The notes below the pieces were generated by a model. That model made no database searches. It had not been told where the DNA came from and was given only the letters and a program-made list of their open reading frames with translations. Shown in pieces: positions 2,868-54,388 of a stretch of DNA of 64,000 nucleotides. The stretch comes from a virus. Taxonomy: Duplodnaviria > Caudoviricetes. The translations under genes were made by a program, and so were the position numbers. Positions within the stretch are counted from its first letter, which is position 1. Each line of letters starts with the position of its first letter. The stretch spans positions 7,140-71,139 of the IMG/VR virus record IMGVR_UViG_3300013288_000001. One strand, written 5' to 3'.

Positions 2868-3410
2868 TTACTCCTTGTTAACCTTATCACTCGAACCAAA
2901 CCCACCTGCCCCGCGCTCAGTCTCATCCAGCGACTCCACTTGCACCAGCGGGTTAATCGCACACGGGACAATGACCAGTTGAGCGCAAGCCTTGTGCTGG
3001 AACACGATGTACTGCACATCCACGCTTCGGTTTAACAAGTTGGTCAGCAGCACCTTGATCGTCCCTCGATACCCACAGTCTACTACCCCGCCGATGACAT
3101 GCAGTCCCGACTTGGCAACCGACGACCGATCTTTCACCAGCCCTACCCACCCCTTCGGAATGACGAGAGCAAGGCCGGTTTCAATCGTGAGCATCTTGCC
3201 GGGTTCCAGGTACACCGGCGCTTTGCTGCGATCGCCAGCTATGCGCCCCGCGTCCGAGTCAATCGTATCGCCATCGTAGCGCACACACCATAGGTCAATG
3301 CCCGCGTCGTAGTGATGAGCGCGTGTCGGCTCCGCTGGTAGCCGACCTGCGATGGCAAGTGCGTGGTACTCTGGCGAGAGCGTGTAGGCAATTGGTGGAA
3401 GGTGGTTCAT
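2868..3410 (-). CDS. dut: trimeric dUTPase
   Basis: Motifs DAGIDL, DRSS, GGVVDCGYRG, AQLV, RGAGGFGSS. Confidence 0.95.
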   Translation of the reverse strand: MNHLPPIAYTLSPEYHALAIAGRLPAEPTRAHHYDAGIDLWCVRYDGDTIDSDAGRIAGDRSKAPVYLEPGKMLTIETGLALVIPKGWVGLVKDRSSVAKSGLHVIGGVVDCGYRGTIKVLLTNLLNRSVDVQYIVFQHKACAQLVIVPCAINPLVQVESLDETERGAGGFGSSDKVNKE

Positions 3411-6027: not shown

Positions 6028-7623
6028 ATGACTCGAAGCGTCGTCGGGGGCAACATCGAAGTTGCACTGCTCCAGAACAAAGAGCCCGTAAAGCAGCTCT
6101 ACAAGGACATGCAAAGCGCGGCGCATACGTTCGTGGTTCACAACCCTAACGATCTGTCTGTGATCCACGACTGGCGGCGGGAGCTTGCCCCTGACTACGC
6201 GGTAGCGCGGGTCTACCTCAAAGACCGCAACGAAGGCCAGATGCACATGCCGCCGCTGTCCCCTGCGGACGTGGCGGCTAAGAAACGCTGGATTGTCTCG
6301 CCAGAGGACTTCCTCAATGCCTTTGGCGAGTTCGGTCGTAACGGCCTGATCCTGAACGTCCACAACGAACCGGCACCTCCTAACGACGACAATGACCGCT
6401 GGCAGGAAGAGCGTCTGATCGAGTGGACGCTCAAGTACCTCGATCTGATTGCCCCGCTGGCGACCACCCCTAAAAAGACGGCAAGTGTTCTTTTTAACTT
6501 TGGTTTTCACCAGCCCGCGAAAGGGCGCTGGAAGTTTTACCATGAGGCGCTGCGACGGGCGAATGAACTGCCCGACGTGTATATTGGCCTGCACCTCTAC
6601 GTACACCCCACACTGCCTTACGAAGACGGGGACACGCTCAAGGAACTGGATGAGTATTGCCGCGCCAATGGCTTCAACAATATCAAGGTCATCGTCACGG
6701 AATGGGGCTTTGATAAAGGCGGTGGCAGAGGCGATGGCTACAAGTCCCCGCTCTATGGATTCAAGGATAGCCGGGACGCGGTACGGCGGCTGTACACCAG
6801 CTTCCAGACCTACCTGAAGCCCTACGTTGCCAGCGGGCGGGTCGTCGGAGTGTGCTACTTCGGTCATGGTCATGCCGACTTCCCTGGCATGGATTCCTCT
6901 AACGATCCTGACTTCCTCGATCAGATGACCTTCACTGCTAAAAACGGCGGCTTTGCGGCGTTGCTCCCCGTGCCACCGAAGCCTCCTGAAACCAAGCCCG
7001 GAACCGCACCACTGCCCTACCCCTCACCTGTACCCCTTGGAGATTCAATGGGGGTTATCAACAAGGCGGCTCGAACGCTGCGAAACGGCCCGTCTATCTC
7101 TTACCGGGTACTCGAAGAAATCCCAGTCAGCACCGAGGTCAACCTCTACACGCAGCAGGTCGTCACGGATAGTTCTAAACAGGCGTGGGTATGGTGTGAT
7201 TACGTCACGGACAAAGGTCAGCGGGCGGGTTGGGTGTGCATCAGTGGATGGTCATACCGCTACAAGCCTGTAGACAAGCCTAGCGGCACGCCAGTACGTC
7301 GCAGCTTGACCTTTGCAGGCGTTCGGCGGCCTGTACGTCAGGGGCCGGGTGAAAAGTGGGACACCGTTGGCTCACTGGTCAAAGGCACGCCGGTGGATGT
7401 CTGGCTGAAGCCAGTGCAGGGCTGGATGTACGTGGAAAATGGACAGGTCAAGGGCTGGATTGACGTGGATGGGATCAGTTTCAATCTGGTTGCGGACAAC
7501 ACGCCGGATACGATTGTGCTGCCCGCGCCGTCCAAGGGTTGCGTCTACGTGCAGGTGCCAGCCGCGTTGCTGGATACCCTGGCGCAGTGGGTAGGCTCGA
7601 TTGAGCGCTATCCGGCGGGGTAA
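6028..7623 (+). CDS. putative endolysin: clan GH-A glycoside hydrolase plus two SH3b domains
   Basis: HNEP (acid/base) and VTEWG (nucleophile) motifs; Pro-rich linker; two LRxGP...GW SH3_3-like repeats. Confidence 0.75.
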   Translation: MTRSVVGGNIEVALLQNKEPVKQLYKDMQSAAHTFVVHNPNDLSVIHDWRRELAPDYAVARVYLKDRNEGQMHMPPLSPADVAAKKRWIVSPEDFLNAFGEFGRNGLILNVHNEPAPPNDDNDRWQEERLIEWTLKYLDLIAPLATTPKKTASVLFNFGFHQPAKGRWKFYHEALRRANELPDVYIGLHLYVHPTLPYEDGDTLKELDEYCRANGFNNIKVIVTEWGFDKGGGRGDGYKSPLYGFKDSRDAVRRLYTSFQTYLKPYVASGRVVGVCYFGHGHADFPGMDSSNDPDFLDQMTFTAKNGGFAALLPVPPKPPETKPGTAPLPYPSPVPLGDSMGVINKAARTLRNGPSISYRVLEEIPVSTEVNLYTQQVVTDSSKQAWVWCDYVTDKGQRAGWVCISGWSYRYKPVDKPSGTPVRRSLTFAGVRRPVRQGPGEKWDTVGSLVKGTPVDVWLKPVQGWMYVENGQVKGWIDVDGISFNLVADNTPDTIVLPAPSKGCVYVQVPAALLDTLAQWVGSIERYPAG

Positions 7624-17229: not shown

Positions 17230-18560
17230 GCTGAAACTCCTCTCACATTAGCCAAAAGACGGGGGAACAGTCGGGCGCGATACTCGGCAAGGGTTTCACC
17301 GGGCAGGAAATCGAACTCTGGCGAGATGTGATCGTCCTCGACCGGCGGCGCAGTCGGTGTGGTATGGCTCAGGACGGGTTCCGGTTCGACGACGGCGGGT
17401 TGCATAGCCTTTCGCATCTCTAGCAGGCGCTTGGCTCCTGTATCGCAGCAGCGGCGGTAATTCTCAGCCATTCGGAATTGTGGAATGTAATCCGCCAGAG
17501 TGGAAGGCTTTTGCGGTAAAGTGGCATCCTCGAACTTGCCCTTGAACCAAATCCGCAAGCCGACAATCTCATAGGCTGCCAGCGGGTCTTCGCTTTGCTG
17601 GTGCGTAGACCACTCATCCCCCTTGCCCTTGATCTTCACCTTGCCAGTGAAAAAGTTCACCAGTTTCTGAATGTGGCTAAACTCACTCGGTCGTTTCGGT
17701 TCCTGCAAACCGAAGTAGTAGCGCACGGCCAATTGGCACATCTCCCGACCAGTCCAATCTGGCTCAGTCGGCTTCGGCGGTTCTGGCGCGGGGGTTTCCT
17801 GGACGGGTGTTGGTTCTGACTCGGTGACAGGCTGTACTGGCAAGTCATTCGCTAACCAGTCATCAATTTCGCCCATTGGCGAAAAGTCGTCCGCCGCTGC
17901 CGAAGGCGCGGCAATAGGTTTTTCTCTATGAGTAGTCTCTGAGGTAGTCTCTGTTGTAGTCTCTGTATTAGAAATGACGTTTCCCGTCAGGGGTATGACG
18001 GCAGATGTCAGGGGGGTATGACGGGAAATGTCAGGGGGTATGACGGGAAATGTCAGGGGGGTATCGGCTTTAAGGATGGTGTCATTTGTGATTTTGACAC
18101 GCTTTAGCCAGAGATTTTGGTAGTCTTTTTCAGTCAAACTGACCACCCCTACCTCCATCCAAAGCTTCATGCGTTTCTCAAATTCAGACCAGTTCACCCT
18201 GATCCAGGGAGCGCATAGGCCGCGCTCTCCATGCACTTCGTAGACGATCAGATTGCGCTTTTGCAGACGCTCCAGGCAGTCTCGTATGGTGCGCTTGTTA
18301 ATCCGAGTCTCTGACCACCATTCAGCGTGGTTTTTGACCAACCATAAATGACCATCGCGCTGGCGGGTCAACCGTGGCTGGTTCGTTTCGGCATTGGGTT
18401 CATGCCAGAACATAATCTGGGCAAAGACATCAGCGTCAAAACGGTTGCCCTCATTGATGTCAATGTAAGACAGTGGAGTGAACACACCCCGGCGGGATTC
18501 ATGCCGACTGGCAATCCAGTTGCGGGCAAATTCGTTGTCGATATAGCTGTACTGGGTCAT
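17226..18560 (-). CDS. phage replication initiator (start revised to ATG 18560)
   Basis: CAGGAG RBS before MTQYSY; winged-HTH-like N-terminus, TETTTETT linker, internal iterons, upstream of dnaB and dnaG. Confidence 0.75.
   Translation of the reverse strand: MTQYSYIDNEFARNWIASRHESRRGVFTPLSYIDINEGNRFDADVFAQIMFWHEPNAETNQPRLTRQRDGHLWLVKNHAEWWSETRINKRTIRDCLERLQKRNLIVYEVHGERGLCAPWIRVNWSEFEKRMKLWMEVGVVSLTEKDYQNLWLKRVKITNDTILKADTPLTFPVIPPDISRHTPLTSAVIPLTGNVISNTETTTETTSETTHREKPIAAPSAAADDFSPMGEIDDWLANDLPVQPVTESEPTPVQETPAPEPPKPTEPDWTGREMCQLAVRYYFGLQEPKRPSEFSHIQKLVNFFTGKVKIKGKGDEWSTHQQSEDPLAAYEIVGLRIWFKGKFEDATLPQKPSTLADYIPQFRMAENYRRCCDTGAKRLLEMRKAMQPAVVEPEPVLSHTTPTAPPVEDDHISPEFDFLPGETLAEYRARLFPRLLANVRGVSA
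17932..17967. repeat. 3 x 12-nt tandem repeat GTAGTCTCTGnn
   Basis: Encodes the TETTTETTSETT linker of the initiator. Confidence 0.8.
17986..18064. repeat. four iterons GTCA(G)4-6TATGACG(GGAAAT), probable replication origin
   Basis: 21-23 nt direct repeats inside the initiator gene, as in lambdoid origins. Confidence 0.75.
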
Positions 18561-18630
18561 GATAAGCTCCTGATGGAACTTGTGTTCTGTTGTGTTGCCA
18601 AAAATAAGTGGTCTGTTGACCACCTTTAAC

Positions 18631-18659
18631 TTGCGCTGAGAGAAAAGCTATGCTATCTT
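18631..18659 (+). promoter_or_regulatory. antisense promoter facing away from the initiator gene
   Basis: TTGCGC-17-TATCTT with extended TGn. Confidence 0.6.
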
Positions 18660-18664
18660 CATGC

Positions 18665-18818
18665 AAGTAAGGTGTTCAAAGCAAACGAGAGGTACTACCC
18701 CCGGTAGTCCTTCTCCCGACAATCAATCGGTTGCACGCCGATTGATCCATGATGTTGGTGACTTGTGTTTGAACGCCTCGCGCCCGCCGCAAGCCCGCTG
18801 AAAAGCGGGTTTTGTTTT
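18665..18818 (+). ncRNA. candidate antisense RNA over the initiator leader
   Basis: Promoter, closing stem GTTCAAA/TTTGAAC, two internal hairpins, then a terminator. Confidence 0.55.
18791..18818 (+). terminator. intrinsic terminator
   Basis: AAGCCCGCT-GAAA-AGCGGGTTT followed by TGTTTT. Confidence 0.75.
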
Positions 18819-18945
18819 ACATCAATGCCATGTGTGCTACTCCAGTGTGTCACAAATATCACTTCAGAGAACCTCATGTTAGCACTTTTTTTGGAAGTCT
18901 CCAACTGAAAGTTAGAGACTCCAACAAGTTTGGGTAAATGACGGG

Positions 18946-32369: not shown

Positions 32370-32639
32370 ATGAACATCAACAGCAAAACCACCCTCAAGA
32401 GCATTATCAGCGAATTCGATACCCGTTTCGGTCTGGTCATCACCCAAAAACAAGCCCGCGAAATCAAGGACACCCGCAAGAGCTGCTATTTTATGGGCAG
32501 CAAGTTCGTCAACACGACACTAGGCTTTAGCGTGGACATAGCAGAAGCCAGCGAGCGCGGCGTGAAATACAGCACCTATGGCACTTGGTATCCTCGCAAC
32601 GAATGGAACAAGGCCGTCCGCGCAGGCGAGTTCAACTAA
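32370..32639 (+). CDS. hypothetical protein
   Basis: CAGGAG RBS, first gene after a strong promoter. Confidence 0.7.
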   Translation: MNINSKTTLKSIISEFDTRFGLVITQKQAREIKDTRKSCYFMGSKFVNTTLGFSVDIAEASERGVKYSTYGTWYPRNEWNKAVRAGEFN

Positions 32640-32932
32640 TGGAATTAATTCTCAAGAACCTGCGTTACCAGCTTTGGTACGCAGGTTCAGAAACCAACGA
32701 AGGACGCACACTGGCCTGGTTAACCAGGGAAGCAGCGGTTAAAAGAGGCGTGGCTCATCAATGGGCGACTGCCTATATCGAAGCGGGCGAGATTGATTTC
32801 GATATTTCATTCGCAGTCAGTCCAGCCTTGAACGACGATGAAGTGAGGCAGCGTATTAAATCAAGCGCACGACAACTTGCGTTTGAATACGCATCGGCGA
32901 CCGGGCGCTTCATTAAAGGATTAAGCAAATGA
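32639..32932 (+). CDS. hypothetical protein
   Basis: TAATG coupling, MELILKNLRY start. Confidence 0.55.
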   Translation: MELILKNLRYQLWYAGSETNEGRTLAWLTREAAVKRGVAHQWATAYIEAGEIDFDISFAVSPALNDDEVRQRIKSSARQLAFEYASATGRFIKGLSK

Positions 32933-33255
32933 GCAAACATCTTCGCGTACCCATTAACACTGAGGGGGTTATCCCCCTCTTGCTCCAGGATTACATGGAG
33001 CGTCACGGCTTCAAGTCGCAGGCCGAGGCTATCCGATACCTGATAATTGAAGGCACCTGTGCAGATCGACATCGGTCAAACCTCGATCAACTGCCCGTAC
33101 TGAATGACCATTACGCAGAGTATCAGGCAGCGCGGGCGGGCGCGGATCTGTCAGAGATTGGCCCACGTGAGGGACTGAATCGGTTCTCGCTCTTTATCGA
33201 AGAGCGAGAGATGGGCAAATGGGGCGGTAATCGTCGCTCCCTGACTGACGAGTAA
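32929..33255 (+). CDS. CopG/ribbon-helix-helix regulator
   Basis: LRVPIN...LQDYMERHGFKSQAEAIRYLI. Confidence 0.65.
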   Translation: MSKHLRVPINTEGVIPLLLQDYMERHGFKSQAEAIRYLIIEGTCADRHRSNLDQLPVLNDHYAEYQAARAGADLSEIGPREGLNRFSLFIEEREMGKWGGNRRSLTDE

Positions 33256-33301
33256 GCCAAATCAATCAATAGCCGTAAACGCAAAAAAAGGGAGGTTTGT
33301 C

Positions 33302-34054
33302 ATGATTAACATCAGCTTCGATCAGATGGTTGTAAATCCTGAAAATGTGCTTACTTTGGCACGAATCACTACTATCAAGGCATTGACCAAAGCAGGTCAG
33401 GACTGGCGTATAACGCCGGAGTTTGATGATATGCAAGCTCAGGCAGCATGGAAAATTTATAACGCCATGCAAGTCTATCCTGGCAAACACATCCTTTATT
33501 ACTACGCCGTCGGCTCAAATGCCGCCATGTCTTGGCGGCAGACGTGGCGGCTGGGGGTGAAGGGTGTGCGCGATCCGCAAAAATCATCGGTGGATTTTGC
33601 GGACGTTTTTCACAAGGGAAGCGATTTTGAAGAGATGGACGAAGATCGCTTTTCGGAGTTGGCGTATGTTCAACACTACTTTGACACTGACACGCTATAC
33701 GACACTTTGGTGTCGTGGTTTCTGCAAGATCGGGACAAAAAAGGCGAGCGCGGTCTAACCGCAGCCCGCCGCGATGCCGACATCTGCCTGTGGGCCGCGC
33801 AGGGCCTCACAAATTTGGAGATCAGCGAGGTTACGGGGATTAAGGTCAGCACAGTCAAGGAATACCGAAAAAGAATTCGGGCATTGCTCCAAATGCGTCT
33901 TGAAGGGGAACCCAAGCAGCCAGTAGCAGCACCCGTGACTATTTTGCCTCAGGAAGAGCCTGCCGAAGAAAATCAGATGGAGTTGTTCTTTGGAGCAGCT
34001 TTACAAAGACTTCGCGACGCTAATCTATTCGCCGACGATGAGGAGGATGATTAA
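33302..34054 (+). CDS. transcription regulator with LuxR/GerE-type HTH
   Basis: RRDADICLWAAQGLTNLEISEVTGIKVSTVKEYRKRI. Confidence 0.7.
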   Translation: MINISFDQMVVNPENVLTLARITTIKALTKAGQDWRITPEFDDMQAQAAWKIYNAMQVYPGKHILYYYAVGSNAAMSWRQTWRLGVKGVRDPQKSSVDFADVFHKGSDFEEMDEDRFSELAYVQHYFDTDTLYDTLVSWFLQDRDKKGERGLTAARRDADICLWAAQGLTNLEISEVTGIKVSTVKEYRKRIRALLQMRLEGEPKQPVAAPVTILPQEEPAEENQMELFFGAALQRLRDANLFADDEEDD

Positions 34055-34082
34055 CAGACACTTTTCAATTTGACCCCTTTAC

Positions 34083-34104
34083 AAGTGATACAGTATGGTA
34101 TAAT
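34083..34104 (+). promoter_or_regulatory. AAGTGAT-family promoter, copy 7 (drives the large ncRNA)
   Basis: AAGTGAT ACAGTATG GTATAAT; also forms the inverted repeat AAGTGAT-N13-ATCACTT. Confidence 0.7.
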
Positions 34105-34354
34105 CACTTTTGTACGGCGCGATAGCACACAAGGCTACTGATAGAATGAAGCGGTATCAGGTGCGGGCGGTTCGCACTCGCGTCACTAGCAGGGTCAAGG
34201 GTATAACGCACAACTTGACCCTGTGAACGTCAGAATAGGAGTAGCAGATGTCATGGGCTGCTGCTTCTGGCTCTCTAGAATCCCGTTTCGACATCCGCGT
34301 TACCCCTTCGTGGATGAGCGATAAGCCGGGGCAGGGCTGGCAAACGGGAGTAGG

Positions 34355-34428
34355 GCGTGCAGGGAAGTCTCGGAGACTTCGCACTGGCAAAGCTGGTGAG
34401 ACGGGAGGTTCGATCCCTCCGGCACGCA
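34355..34428 (+). other. tRNA-like cloverleaf embedded in the ncRNA (not a canonical tRNA)
   Basis: Canonical 74-nt geometry and GGAGG-TTCGATC-CCTCC T-arm, but no U8 or U33, AAA at the anticodon position and no encoded CCA. Confidence 0.55.
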
Positions 34429-34665
34429 CTGCCCTTAGGGGTGCGCGGCGGCACACGGTGGTAGTAGGGATGCCAAGAAACGCGGGGTGAACCTGTGCCG
34501 GGGTTTACTCCACATTAAAAGGATGTGCAGACCTTGCGGGTAATTCCGCGTAGCGTGAAAACGCACTGCAACGGACGCAACCGCGTAGATACCTCGAAGG
34601 ACATCCTCAATCATCCCCCTACCAGGGAGCCGCCAGAATTCCCACCGCTGGCTAACCCCAATGAG

Positions 34666-34695
34666 AACGCCCCTTTGACGGGGCGTTTTGATTTT
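34666..34695 (+). terminator. intrinsic terminator
   Basis: AACGCCCC-tttgac-GGGGCGTT followed by TTGATTTT. Confidence 0.8.
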
Positions 34696-34990
34696 ATGCG
34701 TCTTGCTGGAATGGCTTTTCCTCTGGACAGAATACCTCTGCGATCACGGACAGTTCGGCCCCGGTTTCCGTGCGGTAGCGGCGGCCTGTCTCGCCACTGA
34801 TTGTCTTCACGGTTTCATAGGCGAATACGGTTTCACGGGGATCGTCTACGCAGATAATGAAGCGGACAGCCGCCATCTCATCATCCCAAAATTCGACGAC
34901 CGGCCATTGCCCTAGATGCTCCGTGATGGCGTAGTAGTGCGGGTTGGAGCGAAGCCACTTGAGACAGGCGGCAAATGCGGGGGAGGTCAC
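34694..34990 (-). CDS. hypothetical protein
   Basis: 98-aa ORF converging on the ncRNA terminator. Confidence 0.55.
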   Translation of the reverse strand: MTSPAFAACLKWLRSNPHYYAITEHLGQWPVVEFWDDEMAAVRFIICVDDPRETVFAYETVKTISGETGRRYRTETGAELSVIAEVFCPEEKPFQQDA

Positions 34991-35324: not shown

Positions 35325-35579
35325 TCACTCCTTCCATACCAGCTGCATCAAATGGCTAACGCTGCGACTGTGCGGTTTCCCGTCCTTGCACCTGAGGATC
35401 ACATGCCCTTTGCGACTGACCGGATGAGACTTGACGATGACCCCGCGCTGCTCATCCTTGACACGCCCATACTGGCTGATGACGTAGCGCGGGAAGTCTG
35501 GCACCGGCTTCCACTGCTCTTTTTGAGACAGCGGAGCCGGGTCAAGGAAGCGGCGTTGGAGGTCTTTCGATGTAGACAA
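35325..35579 (-). CDS. stand-alone NUMOD4 motif protein
   Basis: EQWKPVPDFPRYVISQYGRVK; ends before any HNH core. Confidence 0.65.
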   Translation of the reverse strand: MSTSKDLQRRFLDPAPLSQKEQWKPVPDFPRYVISQYGRVKDEQRGVIVKSHPVSRKGHVILRCKDGKPHSRSVSHLMQLVWKE

Positions 35580-37873: not shown

Positions 37874-37895
37874 ATTATACCATACACTATAACTT
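37874..37895 (-). promoter_or_regulatory. AAGTGAT-family promoter, copy 8
   Basis: AAGTTAT AGTGTATG GTATAAT. Confidence 0.7.
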
Positions 37896-37989: not shown

Positions 37990-38493
37990 ATGGCAGCACC
38001 GAAACAGAAGCGAACACGATGGTCAAAAGCAGGGAAGTCTACGATCCCGTGGCCTAAAGACCCGAATATCATGGCGAGGATCGAGGCGGTCAACCGAATG
38101 CGGCTGGAAGGCATTTGGATTAGTGACATCGCCCAGCGCCTGGAATGCTCCGAGCAGACCGTTCGACGGGACATCCGGCGTATGCAGGACATCCTCATTG
38201 AAGAGCGTAAGGGCGATATGCGCCTCATCCAGGACGAAGCCATTGACCGCTACCGGGAAGTGCAACGGCGGGCGATGGAACTCTACAACCAACACAGCGA
38301 TAGCCGCACAAAGCTGGGGGCGCTCAAGGAGTACCGGGAAGCGCAGGCCCGCATTGACCAACTGACAGGAGCCGCAGCGCCGATCAAGGTGGATCACACG
38401 ACGGGCGGTAAAGCGCTGGACATGAAGATGATGACTGAAAGTCAACTGGAAGCCATCGCCGCTGGCAGGTTGCCCGATGACTCTAGCGACTAG
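37990..38493 (+). CDS. terS: terminase small subunit
   Basis: HTH (ISDIAQRLECSEQTVRRDI), DHTTGGK tail, directly upstream of terL. Confidence 0.75.
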   Translation: MAAPKQKRTRWSKAGKSTIPWPKDPNIMARIEAVNRMRLEGIWISDIAQRLECSEQTVRRDIRRMQDILIEERKGDMRLIQDEAIDRYREVQRRAMELYNQHSDSRTKLGALKEYREAQARIDQLTGAAAPIKVDHTTGGKALDMKMMTESQLEAIAAGRLPDDSSD

Positions 38494-39997
38494 GGGAAAG
38501 GTCACTGCTGAACAGCAGGCAGCAGCCGCCGAACTGCTGAAGCGACGGCGGGCACGTTCCCGGTTCCTTGACTTTTGCTACTACGTCCGCAGTGACTTCG
38601 TGGCTGATCCCTTTCACGTCAAAATGGCGGATACGCTTGACCGGGTACTGGAAGGGGAGATTAAAAAGCTCATCATCCTGGCACCGCCTCAGCATGGCAA
38701 GTCCTCAATGGTGTCCGAGTTGTTCCCGGCTTACTGGTTAGGCCGTCGCCCCAATGACCCGGTCATTGAAACCAGCTACACCATCTCCATTGCGCGGCGC
38801 AACTCGTTTGCATCCCGCGATTACGTCAAGAGCAATGAGTTTCGCGCTGTCTTTGGCGACCTGGGCATTCAGGACGTAGACCCGGTTGGCATTCGAGAGG
38901 ATAAGCAGGAAGTCACGGAATGGACGCTGCGTAAGCCTTATCGCGGTGGCTTGCGGGCAGCAGGTATCGGCGGCTCTCTCACGGGTTATCCGGGCAAGCT
39001 GGGCATTATTGATGACCCGTTCAAGGACGACAAAGAAGCCTCTTCGTTTCTGAAGCGGGAAACGGCGTGGTCATGGTTCCTGAACGTCTTTCGTACCCGT
39101 ATTGCGGAAGACGGCGCGATGGTGGTGGTCATGACCCGCTGGCATGAGGATGATCTGGTAGGGCGCATTCTGACCTTAGATGAAGACTGGACACTCATGC
39201 GCTTCCCGGCGCTGTCTGAAACCCAAAGCGACCGCGATTACAACAATCGCAAGTTGGGTTTGCCCGATGGTCTGCCGGACATCCTCGGCAGGGAGCCGGA
39301 GGAACCGCTGGCCGTCAGCCGCCGCTCTAAAACCTTCCTACTCAATGAACGCAGCGTCAACCCGGCGGGCTGGCCTGCACTGTTTCAAGGCGTCCCGCGT
39401 CCGGCAGATGGTACACGCTTCAAGCGGGCATGGCTTCGAGGGGAAGAGGGGGAGTACATCGTGGATGTAACGCCTCAGTTTGCGGATCGTGTGCGCTATT
39501 GGGACAAGGCGGGTACGGAAGGCGACGGCGCGTATACCGCTGGCGTGCTGATCGCTGTCAAGGATGGCATCTACTACGTCGAAGATGTGGTGAGAGGTCA
39601 ATGGTCAGCCTACAACCGGGAACAGATGATTAAAGAGACTGCCGAGAGGGATGAACGGCGGCATGGCGGGGTAGCCATCTGGATTGAGCAAGAGCCGGGT
39701 AGCGGTGGCAAGGAAAGCGCCGAGTCCACTATTCGCAATCTGGCTGGTTTTGACATCCGGGCCGAGTCGCCAGTCGGCAATAAGGATGCACGTATCAACC
39801 CCTTTGCATCGCAAGCCGAAGCGGGCAACGTGCGCTTACTGCGAGGCGACTGGAACGATGAATACATTGAGGAATTGATCGCTATTTCCAAAGGCAAATA
39901 TCGTGACCAAGCCGACGCCACAGCGGGGGCATTCAACAAATTGACCAAGCCGGAAGGCACCGTGAGAAGAACAAAAGTTCGTCGCTCCAACTGGTGA
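38477..39997 (+). CDS. terL: terminase large subunit
   Basis: APPQHGKS Walker A, IIDDP Walker B, MTRWHEDD, nuclease WDKA and DQADA. Confidence 0.93.
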   Translation: MTLATRGKVTAEQQAAAAELLKRRRARSRFLDFCYYVRSDFVADPFHVKMADTLDRVLEGEIKKLIILAPPQHGKSSMVSELFPAYWLGRRPNDPVIETSYTISIARRNSFASRDYVKSNEFRAVFGDLGIQDVDPVGIREDKQEVTEWTLRKPYRGGLRAAGIGGSLTGYPGKLGIIDDPFKDDKEASSFLKRETAWSWFLNVFRTRIAEDGAMVVVMTRWHEDDLVGRILTLDEDWTLMRFPALSETQSDRDYNNRKLGLPDGLPDILGREPEEPLAVSRRSKTFLLNERSVNPAGWPALFQGVPRPADGTRFKRAWLRGEEGEYIVDVTPQFADRVRYWDKAGTEGDGAYTAGVLIAVKDGIYYVEDVVRGQWSAYNREQMIKETAERDERRHGGVAIWIEQEPGSGGKESAESTIRNLAGFDIRAESPVGNKDARINPFASQAEAGNVRLLRGDWNDEYIEELIAISKGKYRDQADATAGAFNKLTKPEGTVRRTKVRRSNW

Positions 39998-48097: not shown

Positions 48098-49651
48098 ATG
48101 TTTCAGAGCGATGGATTTCAGCATAATGCAGTTCAGATAGGCGGCGAGAGCGCGGTTGTCGATGCTCGCGTCCGGATCTATCGTGCTGAATTCCTCGCTC
48201 CGGCTTCAGCGTCAGGCCCGCAAACGGTTACAGCCAACCTCATTCCGAGTGGTGAAACCTTCTATCAAGCGACGGTGACACCCGGTGCGGTGTCGGTTGC
48301 GGCCAACCTGATTGCATCGGCGGAAACGGTCTACAGTGCCAGCGTAACCCCCGGCGCGGTGACAGTTTCAGCGAACCTCATCCCCTCTGCCGAGACGTTC
48401 TACAACGCCTCTGTGACCGTAGGCGATGTCACGGTTTCCGCGCAACTGATCGCCAGTGGGGAAGTGTTTTATCAGGCGACAGTCACTCCCGGCGCAGTAA
48501 CGGTCACAGCGAATATTATCCCGTCGGGCGAAACATTCTATCAGGCATCGGTTGCCCCTGGTGCTGCGACAGTCAGTGCCAACCTGATTGCCAGCGCCGA
48601 ACAGTTCTATCAAGCCTCAGTGACACCCGGCGCTGTGACCATCAGTGCCAACCTGATCGCATCGGCTGAAACCTTCTATCAGGCCAGCGTAGGCGCAGCT
48701 GCGACCACGATTACAGCCAACCTGATTGCATCTGGAGAGGTGTTCTACCAGGCCAGTGTGAGCGTTGGGGCAGTGACCGTCAGTGCGAACCTGATTGCCA
48801 GTGCGGAGACGTTCTATCAGGCAACCGTAACACCGGGTGCTGTGAGTATCGCGGCTCAGGTCATTGCGTCGGCTGAAACCTTCTACAACGCAAGTGTCAG
48901 CCCCGGCGCAGTTTCCATCGGCGCAAATCTCATCGCCAGTGCGGAGCAGATCTATCAGGCCAGTGTGACGACCGGACCGGTCACAATCGCAGCGCAGTTG
49001 ATCGCCTCTGCCGAACAGTTCTACCAGGCGACTGTGACCACCGGCAATGCGCCGGTGGAAGCCCAACTCATCGCCAGCGCGGAAACCTTCTACCAGGCCA
49101 CCGTGACACCGGGGCCGGTCACTGTCACGGCTAACTTGATCGCCTCCGCTGAAACGTTCTATCAGGCGACGGTGCAGGTCGGTGCTCTATCCATCGCGGC
49201 CAACCTGATCCCCTCCGCAGAACAGTTCTACAACGCAAGTGTGACGACTGGCGCGGTCACAGTCACGGCGAACCTGATCCCATCGGGTGAAAGCTTCTAC
49301 CTTGCCAGCGTTTCAGCCGGTGCGCTTACGGTCACAGCCAACCTGATCGCCAGTGCCGAGAGCTTCTACCAGGCGTCGGTGAGTGTTGGCCCGGTCACAA
49401 TTACTGCCAACCTTATTCCTTCCAGCGAAGTCTTTTACAACGCCAGCGTACAACTCATGCTGGCGATTATTCAAGCCAACCTTATCCCCACTGCCGAGGC
49501 GTTTTATCTGGCCTCGATTGGCTCACAGGCGTTCTCAGGACGCGGTTCGATCAGCATTCTCAGCAGCGGAAACAGTATCGAGGTCTTGCGCCAGAGCAAC
49601 ACATTGAGCATCCGGCAAGGCGCAGTCTCATTGGAGGTCTTGCCCACATGA
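48098..49651 (+). CDS. repeat fibre-like protein with 19 x 23-aa repeats
   Basis: Consensus AVTVTANLIASAETFYQASVTPG, repeats counted by hand. Confidence 0.75.
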   Translation: MFQSDGFQHNAVQIGGESAVVDARVRIYRAEFLAPASASGPQTVTANLIPSGETFYQATVTPGAVSVAANLIASAETVYSASVTPGAVTVSANLIPSAETFYNASVTVGDVTVSAQLIASGEVFYQATVTPGAVTVTANIIPSGETFYQASVAPGAATVSANLIASAEQFYQASVTPGAVTISANLIASAETFYQASVGAAATTITANLIASGEVFYQASVSVGAVTVSANLIASAETFYQATVTPGAVSIAAQVIASAETFYNASVSPGAVSIGANLIASAEQIYQASVTTGPVTIAAQLIASAEQFYQATVTTGNAPVEAQLIASAETFYQATVTPGPVTVTANLIASAETFYQATVQVGALSIAANLIPSAEQFYNASVTTGAVTVTANLIPSGESFYLASVSAGALTVTANLIASAESFYQASVSVGPVTITANLIPSSEVFYNASVQLMLAIIQANLIPTAEAFYLASIGSQAFSGRGSISILSSGNSIEVLRQSNTLSIRQGAVSLEVLPT

Positions 49652-49980
49652 CAACCGCTTTCACGCAACGCTTCATTGGCGAAACAAGCACTCTGGAATT
49701 TAAGTTCGTGAATTCCAGCGGGGTAGCAGCCAACCCGTCCGGTATCACGCTCAAGATTGGCGTCTGGAATAAGGCGGCAGGGGTGGTCAATCAACTGACT
49801 GACCCGGCTGTGACCCAATCCGCCATGAGCAACCCGGCAACCGGCACATGGCGCTACGACTACACCTGGGAGCAAGCAGGACTGCATATCATCGAAGTAG
49901 AAACGACTGGCACACCGACGACCGTCATTCGCACTGAGGTCATTGTGGTTGCGCCGGACTTGACCTGGAGCACATCATGA
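49648..49980 (+). CDS. small Ig-like/BppU-like virion protein
   Basis: beta-rich; GTWRYDYTWEQAG. Confidence 0.5.
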   Translation: MTTAFTQRFIGETSTLEFKFVNSSGVAANPSGITLKIGVWNKAAGVVNQLTDPAVTQSAMSNPATGTWRYDYTWEQAGLHIIEVETTGTPTTVIRTEVIVVAPDLTWSTS

Positions 49981-52115
49981 CCAAACCTTTAACCCCCGCC
50001 ATGAAGCGGGCGATGGAAGCCTATCAGACGAACGGCGTAACGGCGCTTTCCGGCGTTGATCCCCGGACGCGGCGGGCGCTGGAAGCCCGTGCGCTCATTC
50101 CCCGCGAGTCGGTGGGGGAGATTGTCGGACGCCCGCGGACCAACCGCATGACGGTCAACTGGCGCGATGCAGGTTTCAGCATTACGCCTACCCGCGATCC
50201 GGGGCAGAGTGACTATCAGTTCTGGGACATGATGTGGCGCGGGCAAGCCAGAGGCTACGAGCTGGCGGGGCTGCTGCTGAAGCCGCTGGCCTCCAAGATC
50301 GCCGCCTGGACGATGGGAACGCCGCCGCGCTTTCGCTCCAAGAAGCCCCGTACCCAGTCGTTATTCAATGAATGGTGGGCTAAGAACCTGCCGAACATCA
50401 TCCGGGGCGTAGAACACGCAGTCATCAAGGGCGATGCCTATCTGGTGGTCAATCCGCCCAACGCGAGAGGCGAACTGACCTTAACCCTACTCCCCCCGGA
50501 AGTCGTGACTGCCGTGGTGGATGAAAATGACTACAGCCGGCGCATCGGCTGGCGGATCGTCGAAGTGCATCCTCACCCGACGCGCATTGCCGATAGCATG
50601 ACGGTGGAAGACATCTACACCACGACGGAACGCATTCGGCGCGTCTGGCGGAGTGGGATGCCCGTTAAAGAAGAACGCTTCCCCAACCTGACCGGACTGG
50701 TACCCGTCATCAAGATCAGCAATGATCGGGGTGCAGATGAAGAGTTCGGACGGTCGGGGGCTGAGGCGCTATTGACACTCTTCAAGATGTACCACGATGT
50801 GCTGAAGGCCGGTCTGGAAGGCAACCTGAAGCAGGGGAGGCCAACCCCGGTACTCGAAAAGATGGGTACTCAGAAACAGATTGACGACTGGTGGGAAGCC
50901 TTCGGTTCCAAGCAAACGCGGGAACTCGACGATGGCACGACGGAAACTTACTACGTGCTGGATCTATCCAGTGACGACGCCATAACCTTAGGCGGCGATG
51001 CCACCTTCCGTTACGCGCAACCCATGAGCTTTAGCGCCGATACAATGAACCTGCTGGGACTACTGTTCTACCTGTACATCCAGCATACAGAAATCCCTGA
51101 GTTCATCATGGGCAACGCTATTGCGTCCTCTAAGGCCAGCGCCGAAACGCAGATGCCCGCTTTTGCCAAGTTCATCGAAAAGAAACAGGGTGAATGTCTG
51201 CACTGGATGAACGATCTGGCACAGGTGGTCATCGCCTTTTTCAGCCTGTATGAACGCGGGGTGAATGCCAATGACGACCTGCAAACCACCTTCGTGCCGC
51301 TCACGTCACAGGACGGACGGTTGACACTGGACGCCATTAAGATGGGGCTGGACTTCGGTCTACTCGACGACGAAACCGCGCTCCAGTTCATGCCACTGGA
51401 CATTGAGAACCCGGAACAGGTCATCCTCAAGGCGCGGCAGGAAGCGGAGGAAAAACGACTGGCGGCACGGCAAGCCCGGATGCAAGATGACATCGAAGTC
51501 TCGCCCGTTGTCGAACCGCGCAACCCCAATCCCGCCGAGTCTGCACCAGTCCAGCGGACGCTCTCAGAAGCCAAGCATACCGGCGCGATGTTGGCCTTTA
51601 TGCTGGATGGCACAGCAGCCTCAGCACTCGCCAGCGCGGTTGAAATGGCGGGTATCCCGGCGGCTGATCGCCTCCCTACCGATGAGCTGCACCTGACGCT
51701 GGCCTACTTAGGCGATACGTCGGAGTTGGACTTTGAGGAAAGCGATGTCATGCAGGTGTTAGGGGACTTCGCTGGCACCGAGTTCAACGTGAGAGGCAAA
51801 CTGAGTGGCATCGGACGCTTTACCAATGTGGAAGGGCCAGAGGCGACCGTGGTCTATGCGTCGGTCGATGCACCTGCCTTGCCCGCTTTCCGGCAAGCTC
51901 TGGTCGAAGCGCTAGGCGACAACGGCATTGACCATGCCCGTAACCACGGCTTTACCCCGCACATTTCGCTGATGTACCTGAAGCCGGATGTCCCCACGCC
52001 CAACATCGAACTGCCTGATCTGGAGATGGTCTTTGACCGTATCACATTGATGTGGGGAGATAATCGGACGGATTTCAACTTGAAAGGATCGCCACTGGAG
52101 ATGATCCCGGCGTGA
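49977..52115 (+). CDS. portal protein with C-terminal 2H phosphoesterase domain
   Basis: Position before head genes, portal-like N-terminal ~480 aa; C-terminal HLTL and HISL 2H motifs. Confidence 0.8.
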   Translation: MTKPLTPAMKRAMEAYQTNGVTALSGVDPRTRRALEARALIPRESVGEIVGRPRTNRMTVNWRDAGFSITPTRDPGQSDYQFWDMMWRGQARGYELAGLLLKPLASKIAAWTMGTPPRFRSKKPRTQSLFNEWWAKNLPNIIRGVEHAVIKGDAYLVVNPPNARGELTLTLLPPEVVTAVVDENDYSRRIGWRIVEVHPHPTRIADSMTVEDIYTTTERIRRVWRSGMPVKEERFPNLTGLVPVIKISNDRGADEEFGRSGAEALLTLFKMYHDVLKAGLEGNLKQGRPTPVLEKMGTQKQIDDWWEAFGSKQTRELDDGTTETYYVLDLSSDDAITLGGDATFRYAQPMSFSADTMNLLGLLFYLYIQHTEIPEFIMGNAIASSKASAETQMPAFAKFIEKKQGECLHWMNDLAQVVIAFFSLYERGVNANDDLQTTFVPLTSQDGRLTLDAIKMGLDFGLLDDETALQFMPLDIENPEQVILKARQEAEEKRLAARQARMQDDIEVSPVVEPRNPNPAESAPVQRTLSEAKHTGAMLAFMLDGTAASALASAVEMAGIPAADRLPTDELHLTLAYLGDTSELDFEESDVMQVLGDFAGTEFNVRGKLSGIGRFTNVEGPEATVVYASVDAPALPAFRQALVEALGDNGIDHARNHGFTPHISLMYLKPDVPTPNIELPDLEMVFDRITLMWGDNRTDFNLKGSPLEMIPA

Positions 52116-54388
52116 TTACCTATACCCGCTTCTCCATTGAGGCGATTGAACGGGACTTTGCTGACGCTTTTGAGCCGGGGGTAGACCGGATTACGCGCCT
52201 CATCCAGCAACGCGCCAGCGCCGATGGTTCACTCAACCTGAGCGGGGGTGCAAAAGACCTATTCATCGATGCCATCGGCGATGAAGTCTCCGCACTCTTC
52301 ACCCCACGCGGTAGCCGCAACGCATTCGGGCGCGATGGGGTGACGGCTCAAGCGCCGTTCCCGGTGACACTCAACCGCTGGTATGCCAACGCGGTTTATA
52401 GAGCGGTGAAACCTCATGCCGACTGGATGACCAAGCGCGTGCCACTGGACATTCAGCGGGCGCTCAAAAGCCGCGTGCAGGTGCGACGGGAGAGTTATTC
52501 ACCCATAGGCGAAACGACCAACCCGATTAAGGGATTGTTCGTGCCAAACCCGCTGGCGCAGTATGACCCGATGCACACCTGGGTAGACCCCAATGGCTAT
52601 GTCCTCTCCCAACGTATCTGGCGGGCAGGGGAGGCCACGCGCTCCAAGATTGACCGCTTGTTAGCGGACTTGATTGCGCGGGGTACAGGTTCTCTGGAGA
52701 TGTCCCGTATCCTCGAACAGTTCCTGCTTCCCGGACGCGAGTTACTCCGTACTCGTAGACCCTACGGCACCGATGCCAGCTATGACGCCATGCGACTGGC
52801 ACGGACGGAGATCGCCCATGCAGCGAACCAGGCAGCAGCCATCGCCGCCTACAGCAACCCTTATGTGGAAACCATTGACGTAGCGCGTTCCCGGTGGGGC
52901 GATCCCAATTGCAAGATTTGCCCGCAACATGCGACCATCGGCATTAACGGGGAACGTATCCGGCCAGCGTATCCAAAAGGCAGCTTTCGCATTCCACCTT
53001 TTCATCCACATTGTGTTACACCGGGTCAATTGGTGAACACTATGCGGGGCATAATCCCGATTGAAAATGTCGTGGAAGGTGATTACGTGCTTACGCACAA
53101 GGGGCGTTATCGGAAGGTGCTGGCAGCATGGAGCAAGCAGTATGACGGCTTAGTCCATGCTATCCAGACACCTTCAGGGGTTTTCGAATTAACCAGCGAG
53201 CATCCCGTTTTAACGTCTGAACGGTGGCTTGATGCCCAATTTATCCAACCGGGTCAACAAATCCTCTACGCAGCTATCTACGCTCCGCTCAATAGCATCT
53301 TGAGTGTACCGGAAAGTCATCCAGCCGAACCCCTCCAAAGCAGCATCTCGACGGGCGTCTTTGTCCGGTTTATGCCAGCCGCGCCCGTCACATTCAATCG
53401 CTACTCGGCAAGGAACAAGAGCAAAATCAAGCGAATAACGCCATACCCGATATTCCCGATGGAAGATGAGCTTGTTTCGGGTAAGGGCTTCAGCCATTGC
53501 ACGTTCAATCGACGTTGGCTCCCCATTACGCCGCATTTCAAAAACGCGCTCCAGCATGGCAGCAAGGCCGGGGTTGTATCGCTTTTTGGCAGCAGACATC
53601 TTTTTGCGAACTTCTGGTCTGCTCATGGGATTGTTTTCGCCACTCCGAACCAAAGCGGCACTGATAGATTTATACATCGCACTGGTCATGGCAGATCGGG
53701 TTCCATCATCGTGCGACCAAGTAGCAGCAACGGCTTGACTTCTGGTTTTAAGCTCCAATCCGGCGCGCTTCATCAGACTGCGAAACATACGGAAAGTTAT
53801 CCCCAACTCAGTTCGGATGGCGGGATGATTAAGCCTTTGAGTGTAGTAGAGGTCGGCAAGGACTTCGGAGTAGGGGCGATTGAATTGCCCTTCAATTCTG
53901 GCGATATGCTTGAGTTGGGCGTGGGAAGATCTGCAACTAGGGGCTTTGCAAATTTTGCCAGTACAGGGGGAATCACAAACCAAACAGCGGTTGAGCTTTG
54001 TCACGATAACCTCTCGTCGTTATCTCTCGATGTTGAAGTGGGCGCTGCGTCGAGAAACGCAGTTGTCAGCAGGGTAGCTATCCCTACTCAAGCCCATCTC
54101 TATTATAGCACGGTCGAAGGCGTAACAACCCGGCATTATTCAGGACTGGTCTACAACATGCACGTTGAAGAAGATAATTCCTATACGGTGAACAGTGCCG
54201 CTGTTCATAATTGTATGTGTAGAATTCAGGCCAACGTCGGGGACTTCGAGGAAGTGAACCGCCGACTCCGCGAATGGAGCGACATGGAAAACCCGCCGCC
54301 GCTGGATTTTCCAACGCCTTTAGACTGGTCATCGCTGCTGCTTTTGCTCCTGGGAGCCTATTTGTACAGCCAAATCGAGTTTAATTGA
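52112..54388 (+). CDS. head morphogenesis protein (SPP1 gp7/Mu gpF family) with intein
   Basis: RLARTEIA and C..C motifs; the spliced junction restores FHPH-CMCR. Confidence 0.85.
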   Translation: MITYTRFSIEAIERDFADAFEPGVDRITRLIQQRASADGSLNLSGGAKDLFIDAIGDEVSALFTPRGSRNAFGRDGVTAQAPFPVTLNRWYANAVYRAVKPHADWMTKRVPLDIQRALKSRVQVRRESYSPIGETTNPIKGLFVPNPLAQYDPMHTWVDPNGYVLSQRIWRAGEATRSKIDRLLADLIARGTGSLEMSRILEQFLLPGRELLRTRRPYGTDASYDAMRLARTEIAHAANQAAAIAAYSNPYVETIDVARSRWGDPNCKICPQHATIGINGERIRPAYPKGSFRIPPFHPHCVTPGQLVNTMRGIIPIENVVEGDYVLTHKGRYRKVLAAWSKQYDGLVHAIQTPSGVFELTSEHPVLTSERWLDAQFIQPGQQILYAAIYAPLNSILSVPESHPAEPLQSSISTGVFVRFMPAAPVTFNRYSARNKSKIKRITPYPIFPMEDELVSGKGFSHCTFNRRWLPITPHFKNALQHGSKAGVVSLFGSRHLFANFWSAHGIVFATPNQSGTDRFIHRTGHGRSGSIIVRPSSSNGLTSGFKLQSGALHQTAKHTESYPQLSSDGGMIKPLSVVEVGKDFGVGAIELPFNSGDMLELGVGRSATRGFANFASTGGITNQTAVELCHDNLSSLSLDVEVGAASRNAVVSRVAIPTQAHLYYSTVEGVTTRHYSGLVYNMHVEEDNSYTVNSAAVHNCMCRIQANVGDFEEVNRRLREWSDMENPPPLDFPTPLDWSSLLLLLLGAYLYSQIEFN
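53210..54004 (-). CDS. DUF559/Vsr-like (EDxHD-type) endonuclease encoded antisense inside the intein
   Basis: LDFALVPCRVAIECDGRGWH...DARRD.ALE..GW..FRY; NUMOD3-like GENNPMSRPEVRKKMS; Cys-rich N-terminus; GAGAGG RBS and GTG start. Confidence 0.85.
   Translation of the reverse strand: MTKLNRCLVCDSPCTGKICKAPSCRSSHAQLKHIARIEGQFNRPYSEVLADLYYTQRLNHPAIRTELGITFRMFRSLMKRAGLELKTRSQAVAATWSHDDGTRSAMTSAMYKSISAALVRSGENNPMSRPEVRKKMSAAKKRYNPGLAAMLERVFEMRRNGEPTSIERAMAEALTRNKLIFHREYRVWRYSLDFALVPCRVAIECDGRGWHKPDKDARRDAALEGFGWMTFRYTQDAIERSVDSCVEDLLTRLDKLGIKPPFRR
54102..54110 (-). promoter_or_regulatory. extended -10 promoter for the antisense endonuclease
   Basis: TGCTATAAT on the minus strand, about 100 nt upstream of GTG 54004. 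Confidence 0.65.

Follow-up and report, generated by a model that had tools for sequence, protein, structure and literature searches.

The DNA analysed here, called the window throughout, is a stretch of 64,000 nucleotides that runs from base 7140 to base 71139 of an IMG/VR virus record (IMGVR_UViG_3300013288_000001; Caudoviricetes), which is 71,139 bp long and carries direct terminal repeats. Near its middle, on the plus strand, a promoter and a terminator enclose bases 34105-34697, which probably specify a functional, structured RNA of a new family read from the plus strand. We refer to the copy of this RNA in the window as W and to the related phage contigs used for comparison as L093, L099, L110, L113 and L195. 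The features of the locus are collected in Table 1.

Table 1. Features of the RNA locus and positions of a strand-polar motif in the window (MFE, minimum free energy fold)
Feature	Coordinates	Strand	Remarks
Promoter	34070-34104	+	TTGACC at 34070-34075; further on, TATGGT overlaps the extended -10 element TGGTATAAT (34096-34104)
Inverted repeat TACAAGTGAT / ATCACTTTTGTA	34080-34114		Brackets the -10 element; RNAalifold pairs columns 21-30 with 44-55
D1, linker-free four-way junction	34116-34184	+	7-bp closing stem around three hairpins
D1 hairpins UAGC/GCUA, CUGAUA/UAUCAG and GUGCGG/UCGCAC	within 34116-34184	+	Found in MFE, centroid and RNAalifold structures
H2, 11-bp hairpin with 14-nt loop	34189-34224	+	The 10-bp stem of the sequence-only reading; pairing probability 0.98
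H3, 11-bp hairpin AGGAGUAGCAG/CUGCUGCUUCU	34237-34268	+	From folds and alignment
Three-way junction	34282-34348	+	Closing helix CCCGUU/AACGGG; hairpins CAUCCGCG/CGUGGAUG and GCCGG/CUGGC
T1, tRNA-shaped module	34355-34429	+	ARAGORN call 'Phe(aaa)'
Small hairpin GCCC-UUAG-GGGU	34431-34442	+	Stem invariant; loop differs in L195 (GAAAAA)
Hb, 11-bp hairpin GGGGUGAACCU/GGGUUUACUCC	34484-34511	+	Pairing probability 0.85
W-only 54-nt segment	34519-34572	+	Replaces the 649-nt insert I2 of L099; no counterpart in relatives
Conserved 3' block	34573-34663	+	Local hairpin GAUA-CCUCGAAGG-ACAUC, hairpin GCCAG/CUGGC, strand CAUCCCCCUACCA
Intrinsic terminator	34664-34697	+	10-bp G+C-rich stem (34664-34689), 6-nt loop, U-run
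GGGCAGGG sites	446, 9694, 9732, 10619, 11566, 15085, 16728, 22194	-	Count over the window
GGGCAGGG sites	34329, 41005, 41904, 46071, 52623	+	Count over the window

A predicted transcription unit without a credible gene

An earlier reading of the window, made from the sequence alone (the sequence-only reading), had placed a promoter, a strong terminator and no credible gene at this locus, and each of these proposals held up. The promoter contains a consensus extended -10 element, one of three TGnTATAAT sites in the 64 kb where 0.69 would be expected; the other two lie on the minus strand at 37874-37882 and 54102-54110. L099, L113 and L195 share the promoter sequence, and the copies become homologous just upstream of it. 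The inverted repeat around the -10 element, intact in W, L099 and L195 but disrupted in L113, may be an operator. The terminator, a 10-bp stem followed by a T-run, has the orientation of the plus strand. Its stem is 100% paired in four variants, and three one-sided changes all preserve pairing. Both signals are thus conserved and run in the direction of the RNA, which at the level of sequence is what marks an independent non-coding RNA gene.

The longest open reading frames (ORFs) within the ~585 nt between the two signals encode 80 amino acids on the plus strand and 99 on the minus strand, and no Pfam match was found for the inner ORFs. A conserved protein encoded in one of these short ORFs would speak against an RNA; when searched against 5.8 billion proteins, the 80-aa ORF found no homologue besides itself. 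The same ORF is split by a 265-nt insert in L099, where the gene caller of the collection called nothing over the ~1.6 kb spanning the RNA. No ORF conserved across the variants was found.

Compensatory changes in related phages

Four diverged copies of the RNA (L093, L099, L110 and L195) and one near-identical 5' fragment (L113) were obtained, those in L110 and L113 being partial. L093 was reached via a 99%-identical terminase, and its first 1,033 bases are a diverged, 5'-truncated copy. L099 was found in metagenome contigs by a pattern made from blocks conserved between W and L093, and L195 in IMG/VR by a three-way-junction pattern; the genes flanking the latter copy are ~74% identical to those of W. 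L110 and L113 were found through look-ups of neighbouring genes.

For the 5' half of the RNA, W, L099, L195 and L113 were aligned over 68 proposed base pairs, and in the controls the 3' partner was slid by 1-3 columns. Pairing was retained in 98.3% of the alignment cells and 10 pairs carried compensatory changes, compared with 32-43% pairing and 0-1 compensatory pairs in the slid controls. The observed values were reached in 0 of 500 column shuffles, and RNAalifold recovered the same helices when no structure was supplied. Over the 5' half and the cloverleaf module T1 together, 13 pairs changed on both sides with pairing kept (slid controls 0-1). The covariation that the sequence-only reading proposed to look for in related phages is thus present, in relatives too few for significance of the R-scape type. 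Because G·U occupies 26 cells among the proposed pairs and A·C 2 cells, the plus strand appears to be the RNA strand; the ratio is as expected for a plus-strand RNA but not for the opposite strand or for DNA.

Searches at greater distance gave no further relatives. Distant-mode blastn of the RNA found no match in INPHARED (50,697 phage records, T5-like phages included) or among PLSDB plasmids. At 80 IMG/VR loci containing terminase relatives and in 25 whole viral records, no similarity was detected by blastn, nhmmer or BLAST, and ARAGORN found no analogous tRNA-like element at 54 terminase-relative loci. No relative of the RNA was present at 80 terminase-relative loci from GTDB, the closest of which belong to Chloroflexota. 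A DNA search of 401 Anaerolineae genomes returned one chance match, located inside a coding region, and the covariance model R2 found nothing in 151 Anaerolineae genomes. Models R1 and R2, both of 5' modules, returned only their training sequences over 98 related loci, and viral-contig pattern scans for the D arm of T1 and for the 3' block found none. Among what was searched, the RNA family looks confined to one small phage lineage.

A tRNA-shaped module with selected pairing

Module T1 combines a canonical T arm (GGAGG-UUCGAUC-CCUCC) with the GG of the D-loop and a 6-bp acceptor stem plus an A·G pair. ARAGORN calls the cloverleaf in W, L093, L099 and L195, and made 0 calls in 3.84 Mb of dinucleotide shuffles. 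All 22 pairs of T1 are 100% paired in four variants. Compensatory changes affect three of its stems, namely acceptor (C-G to A-U), anticodon (A-U, C-G, U·G) and T (G-C to U-A), and the slid controls show none. A cloverleaf, a canonical T loop, the D-loop GG, an acceptor stem and compensatory changes together are the attributes by which a tRNA-like structure is recognized.

The decoding end is different. The anticodon loop is closed (GC-AAA-GC, able to form a 7-bp stem), and the 'anticodon' is AAA in W and AAU in L093, L110 and L195. The Rfam tRNA model gave no plus-strand match to T1 at E <= 10, so that T1 does not qualify as a bona fide tRNA. Because its anticodon loop is closed and variable, and because it has G8, C33 and no CCA, T1 is predicted to be unable to decode; as judged from the variants it is a shape mimic, of which the elbow and the acceptor stem are kept under selection. 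Two other identities were considered and ruled out: a permuted transfer-messenger RNA (tmRNA), since the cloverleaf is contiguous and ARAGORN finds no tmRNA, and a phage attachment site (attP) or tRNA fragment, since the sampled genomes hold no host tRNA identity.

Module-by-module fold

The RNA is predicted to fold as a chain of modules that begins with D1, H2 and H3, continues with the three-way junction and T1, and closes with a 3' domain whose last element is the terminator. All 23 pairs of D1 are identical in W and L195 and only the loops change, at a flanking gene identity of ~74%. In H2, three pairs have changed on both sides yet still pair, and 100% of the cells are paired. The changes in H3 are one-sided exchanges between G·U and A-U, plus one mismatch in L093. 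The three-way junction has seven compensatory pairs, which separate W and L099 from L093 and L195 (slid controls at most 1), and its hairpin loops UU(A/G)CCCCUU and GGCAGGG are invariant in four variants while the stems covary. Hairpin Hb has two compensatory pairs in L195 and two broken pairs in L099.

The 3' block is 96% identical to L093 and L099 and ~80% identical to L195, where the basal stem GAUG/CAUC of its local hairpin is changed to GUCU/AGAC. Strand CAUCCCCCUACCA (34609-34621) pairs with UGGUAG..GGGAUG (34459-34472) with an MFE probability of 0.82-0.85, and in the long forms of the RNA it has two candidate 5' partners.

Most of the stems listed in the sequence-only reading reappear in the MFE or centroid structure, namely CAGGGTCAAG/CTTGACCCTG (the 10-bp stem), CTGATA/TATCAG, GTGCG/CGCAC, AGTAGCAG/CTGCTGCT, CATCCGCG/CGTGGATG, GGGATG/CATCCC and AGGATGT/ACATCCT. 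The outer stem TCCCGTTT/AAACGGGA is absent from both folds of W, but it is present in the fold of L099 (CCCGUU/AACGGG, P 0.90) and is supported by the covariation. GGCACA/TGTGCC exists in the sequence but competes with a better-supported hairpin. As for the nested multi-junction layout described there, folding as such is borne out by the compensatory changes, but the 3' part is not conserved and leans partly on the W-only segment, which contains the AGGATGT, GCGG/CCGC and GCGT-GAAA-ACGC stems.

Gain and loss of modules

Members of the family differ 2.5-fold in length, from 0.59 to ~1.45 kb, with W the shortest (~585 nt), L195 at ~1,190 nt and L099 at ~1,445 nt. Compared with W, L099 carries two inserts: the 265-nt one, I1, separates the three-way junction from the cloverleaf, and one of 649 nt, I2, occupies the site of the W-only segment. 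The 3' two-thirds of I1 are ~95% conserved among L099, L093 and L195. I2 contains two further tRNA-shaped elements with canonical T arms and aberrant or missing anticodon arms, and L093 and L099 give weak tRNA-like matches with canonical T arms. The relatives carry two or three additional tRNA mimics in extra domains. L110 has a junction without I1 and a different cloverleaf sequence.

One relative contains an embedded tRNA that scores well above threshold. At 4827-4909 of L195, the Rfam match reaches 42.5 bits against a gathering cut-off of 29 and ARAGORN calls Tyr-GTA; this is a probable functional class II tRNA-Tyr (GTA) with a single-stranded 5' leader. At the corresponding site, L099 (~3028-3084) and L093 (~470-527) have a miniaturised element with the same acceptor, GGGTAG...CTACCC. 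These comparisons show that modules of the family come and go among close strains, and that W is a reduced form that has lost the inserts and kept the conserved core. The ~585-nt large RNA of the sequence-only reading therefore stands as a non-coding unit from promoter to terminator, but as a reduced variant of a family reaching 1.45 kb.

The locus in its genomic surroundings

Homology between W and L099 starts just upstream of the -35 element and stops after the terminator, despite different upstream genes. The cassette of promoter, RNA and terminator holds its position while the neighbouring genes differ. In the window it follows a rightward block of four genes (32370-34054, +; 89, 97, 108 and 250 aa) that is absent from L099. 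The 250-aa gene, LuxR/sigma region 4-like and directly upstream of the RNA, has a single homologue (67% identity); the wastewater contig that carries this homologue is unrelated in other respects and does not have the RNA next to the gene. In L195, only a homologue of the divergent gene is found directly upstream of the RNA. Taken together, these arrangements point to the RNA locus as a recombination hot spot.

An 84-aa ORF at 35325-35579 (-) carries only a NUMOD4 motif and resembles a fragment of a homing endonuclease, and L099 has a DUF559 (Vsr-like) gene beside a 161-aa gene. Elements of the NUMOD4 and DUF559 types may drive the mosaicism around the RNA.

The phage that carries W recurs across many assemblies, and its RNA region is 100% identical in both copies fetched. 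In the index of the collection, a gene next to W appears in 67 blocks, and 46 of these blocks include contigs of 50-200 kb. The nearest relatives of the large terminase (38477-39997) are 45-54% identical and are located in Anaerolineae/Chloroflexota contigs of metagenome-assembled genomes; some of these contigs are 0.46-1.46 Mb long, which suggests prophages. Because the nearest terminase relatives sit in those genomes, the host probably belongs to the Anaerolineae/Chloroflexota. The gene at 48098-49651, first taken as the terminase, proved to encode a tail-like protein. The C-terminal ~180 aa of the portal protein (49977-52115, +) match PHROG 'RNA ligase' families, and the portal copy of a relative matches the Pfam 2',5' RNA ligase family. 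Elsewhere in the window, the interval 18291-18880 (+) is the strongest folding-energy outlier after regression on GC content (-3.4 sd).

All 13 occurrences of the octamer GGGCAGGG lie on whichever strand is transcribed in that arm of the genome, with none on the opposite strand. Of the 10-mer CGGGGCAGGG there are seven copies where 0.23 would be expected, and one copy forms an invariant loop of the three-way junction. The octamer agrees with GGGNAGGG, the form of the FtsK-orienting polar sequences (KOPS) in E. coli; its polarity would be equally suited to Chi-like sites that point towards both ends of the DNA. Another polar motif, GCCAACCTGA(T), has a 7:0 strand bias.

Relation to known RNA classes

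Rfam 15 was searched with cmscan in two ways: the whole window at gathering thresholds, which gave no match, and the 1-kb region of W together with L093, L099 and L195 under permissive filters at E <= 10. Membership of ROOL, GOLLD or OLE, one of the two identities offered by the sequence-only reading, found no support, as none of these families matched any of the four variants. Rfam models of tmRNA, RNase P and group I/II introns did not match them either. The other identity, a new phage-encoded large RNA, is favoured by the lack of an Rfam family and by the compensatory changes in homologues.

GOLLD RNAs sometimes embed tRNAs in a linker between their 5' and 3' domains (10.1101/2024.12.08.627333; PMC12990946). 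Like GOLLD, the present family is large, carried by phages or prophages (here a virus record) and part variable, part conserved, and it places a tRNA mimic, or a real tRNA-Tyr in the case of L195, between its conserved 5' domain and the 3' domain. Unlike GOLLD, it has its conserved part in the 5' domain while the middle and the 3' part vary, its embedded elements are mostly non-decoding mimics, and the Rfam model of GOLLD matches none of the four variants. Assembly into homo-oligomeric nanocages is a mark of both GOLLD and ROOL. By this comparison GOLLD is the nearest parallel known. ROOL RNAs are ~580 nt long, phage-associated and often near tRNA genes, with multi-junction folds (PMC5737381; 10.1101/2024.12.08.627333). 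W is like ROOL in its size, its presence in a phage and its multi-junction fold. For the most part, ROOL occurs in Firmicutes and in phages of that group; the host here is probably a member of the Chloroflexota, the length varies 2.5-fold through gain and loss of modules, and the covariance model of ROOL does not match.

In the phage regulatory RNAs that RNase P processes (P1/P7 c4 and P4 CI), in the T4 stable RNAs, which are transcribed together with tRNAs, and in the bacterial Y RNA YrlA with its tRNA-like domain, a tRNA-shaped element serves as a processing or protein-binding signal. These RNAs resemble the present one in having such an element inside a transcript that is not a tRNA, but they are 80-200 nt long, and no Rfam match was obtained here. 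No Ro/Rsr or RtcB gene was seen among the genes neighbouring the RNA.

Interpretation and alternatives

We favour, with moderate confidence, a functional plus-strand structured RNA of a new family. Like GOLLD-type phage RNAs that embed tRNAs, such an RNA would work as a stable folded particle, and its tRNA-shaped modules would be handles for machinery that reads tRNA shape. RNase P/Z might cut the transcript at these modules and free the real tRNA in a member that contains one; alternatively, the modules might bind and hold a host factor that recognizes tRNA.

Several observations weigh against this picture. Since there are about five sequence variants, several of which are mutual mosaics, the compensatory changes trace to few independent events. 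The invariance of D1 and the presence of GGGCAGGG in a loop of the three-way junction could reflect a constraint at the DNA level. W lacks I1, which is conserved in three relatives, and could be a crippled derivative. Its 54-nt private segment, and with it the 3' multi-junction, is without comparative support, and two long-range helices proposed by the MFE fold were dropped, GGCUCUCU/AGGGAGCC because it fails in L093 and GCGCGGCGGC/GCUGCCGCGU because of mismatches in W and L195. The folding energy of W differs from that of shuffled sequences (MFE -241 vs -217 kcal/mol, z = -3.5), but after GC regression the interval ranks only 25th among 430 equal-sized windows of the genome. Because of this rank, folding energy alone is not distinctive for this genome, and the comparison of homologues carries the weight. 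Finally, the specific mechanism, in which tRNA-shaped modules are handles, is one that we infer throughout; it is tentative, and possible rather than probable.

The main rival, which we consider unlikely, is a decaying tRNA operon, i.e., a former tRNA cluster with its own promoter and terminator that now consists mostly of pseudo-tRNAs and of which W is a functionless remnant. This would account for the genuine tRNA-Tyr in L195 next to the shrunken elements with the same acceptor in L099 and L093, for the lack of decoding features in T1, T2 and T3, and for the large indels that separate close strains, with W lacking both inserts. However, W and L093 differ at 13 of 76 aligned bases in T1, yet its stems remain 100% paired, with compensatory changes in the anticodon stem among the differences, and neutral decay is disfavoured for that reason. 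Helices that have nothing to do with a tRNA (H2, the three-way junction and Hb) covary as well, the conservation of D1 and I1 far exceeds that of the genes around the RNA, and the W-type phage is found unchanged in many samples, with both fetched copies identical across the RNA.

Less likely still is a precursor of an immunity or regulatory RNA of a plasmid-like prophage, which RNase P would cut at the tRNA-like module to free a small antisense regulator. The models for such a system are the c4 RNA of P1/P7 and the CI RNA of P4, both small antisense regulators released by RNase P. The cassette is suitably placed at a divergent/convergent junction beside regulatory genes, with a LuxR/sigma region 4-like gene directly upstream, the inverted repeat around the -10 element suggests a repressible promoter, and RNase P is known to respond to tRNA shape. 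Against this, the 64-kb window offers no meaningful antisense target (the longest complement is 13 nt, E 0.46), the RNA exceeds known immunity RNAs in size by an order of magnitude, and its conserved mass is mostly in compact junctions instead of accessible seed regions.

A DNA-level element (an operator cluster, Chi/KOPS-like sites, or a replication or recombination hot spot) or a degraded protein gene, with incidental folds, is very improbable. D1 is indeed invariant instead of covarying, the loop of the three-way junction carries CGGGGCAGGG with its seven strand-polar genome copies, and the locus is a rearrangement hot spot of unexceptional folding energy. The 13 compensatory pairs and the 26:2 excess of G·U over A·C, however, make sense only for a plus-strand RNA, promoter and terminator are co-oriented and conserved, and the variants share no conserved ORF. 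That the RNA diverged from GOLLD, ROOL or OLE as a member of one of these classes is barely credible: the size range, the phage setting and a tRNA or mimic between 5' and 3' domains as in GOLLD (PMC12990946) would fit, but no Rfam 15 match was obtained at E <= 10 in four variants, the 1.2-1.45 kb forms included, nor any blastn match to INPHARED phages.

Implications for large phage RNAs

A more speculative extension of the structured-RNA reading, which we regard as rather doubtful, is that the RNA, in its forms of up to 1.45 kb, stands for a giant, ornate class of its own and is a multivalent tRNA decoy or scaffold in which several non-decoding mimics are strung on a conserved core. It might soak up a host defence nuclease that targets tRNA or a tRNA-processing enzyme, or it might form a multimeric particle that stores or presents tRNAs. 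In either case, the rapid gain and loss of modules between strains would reflect an arms race.

To our knowledge, large structured RNAs of bacteria and phages are few (GOLLD, ROOL, OLE and raiA), and none has an established function. The link of large RNAs to tRNA is a standing puzzle, to which would now be added a family whose phages come from a little-studied group of hosts and which neither sequence nor model connects with those classes. The family makes the link uncommonly plain, in a series from a real embedded tRNA through shrunken copies to mimics in shape alone that selection has kept, all on a conserved core that is not a tRNA. Its natural 0.59-kb and 1.45-kb versions would form a ready-made deletion series for questions of structure and of the role of the modules.

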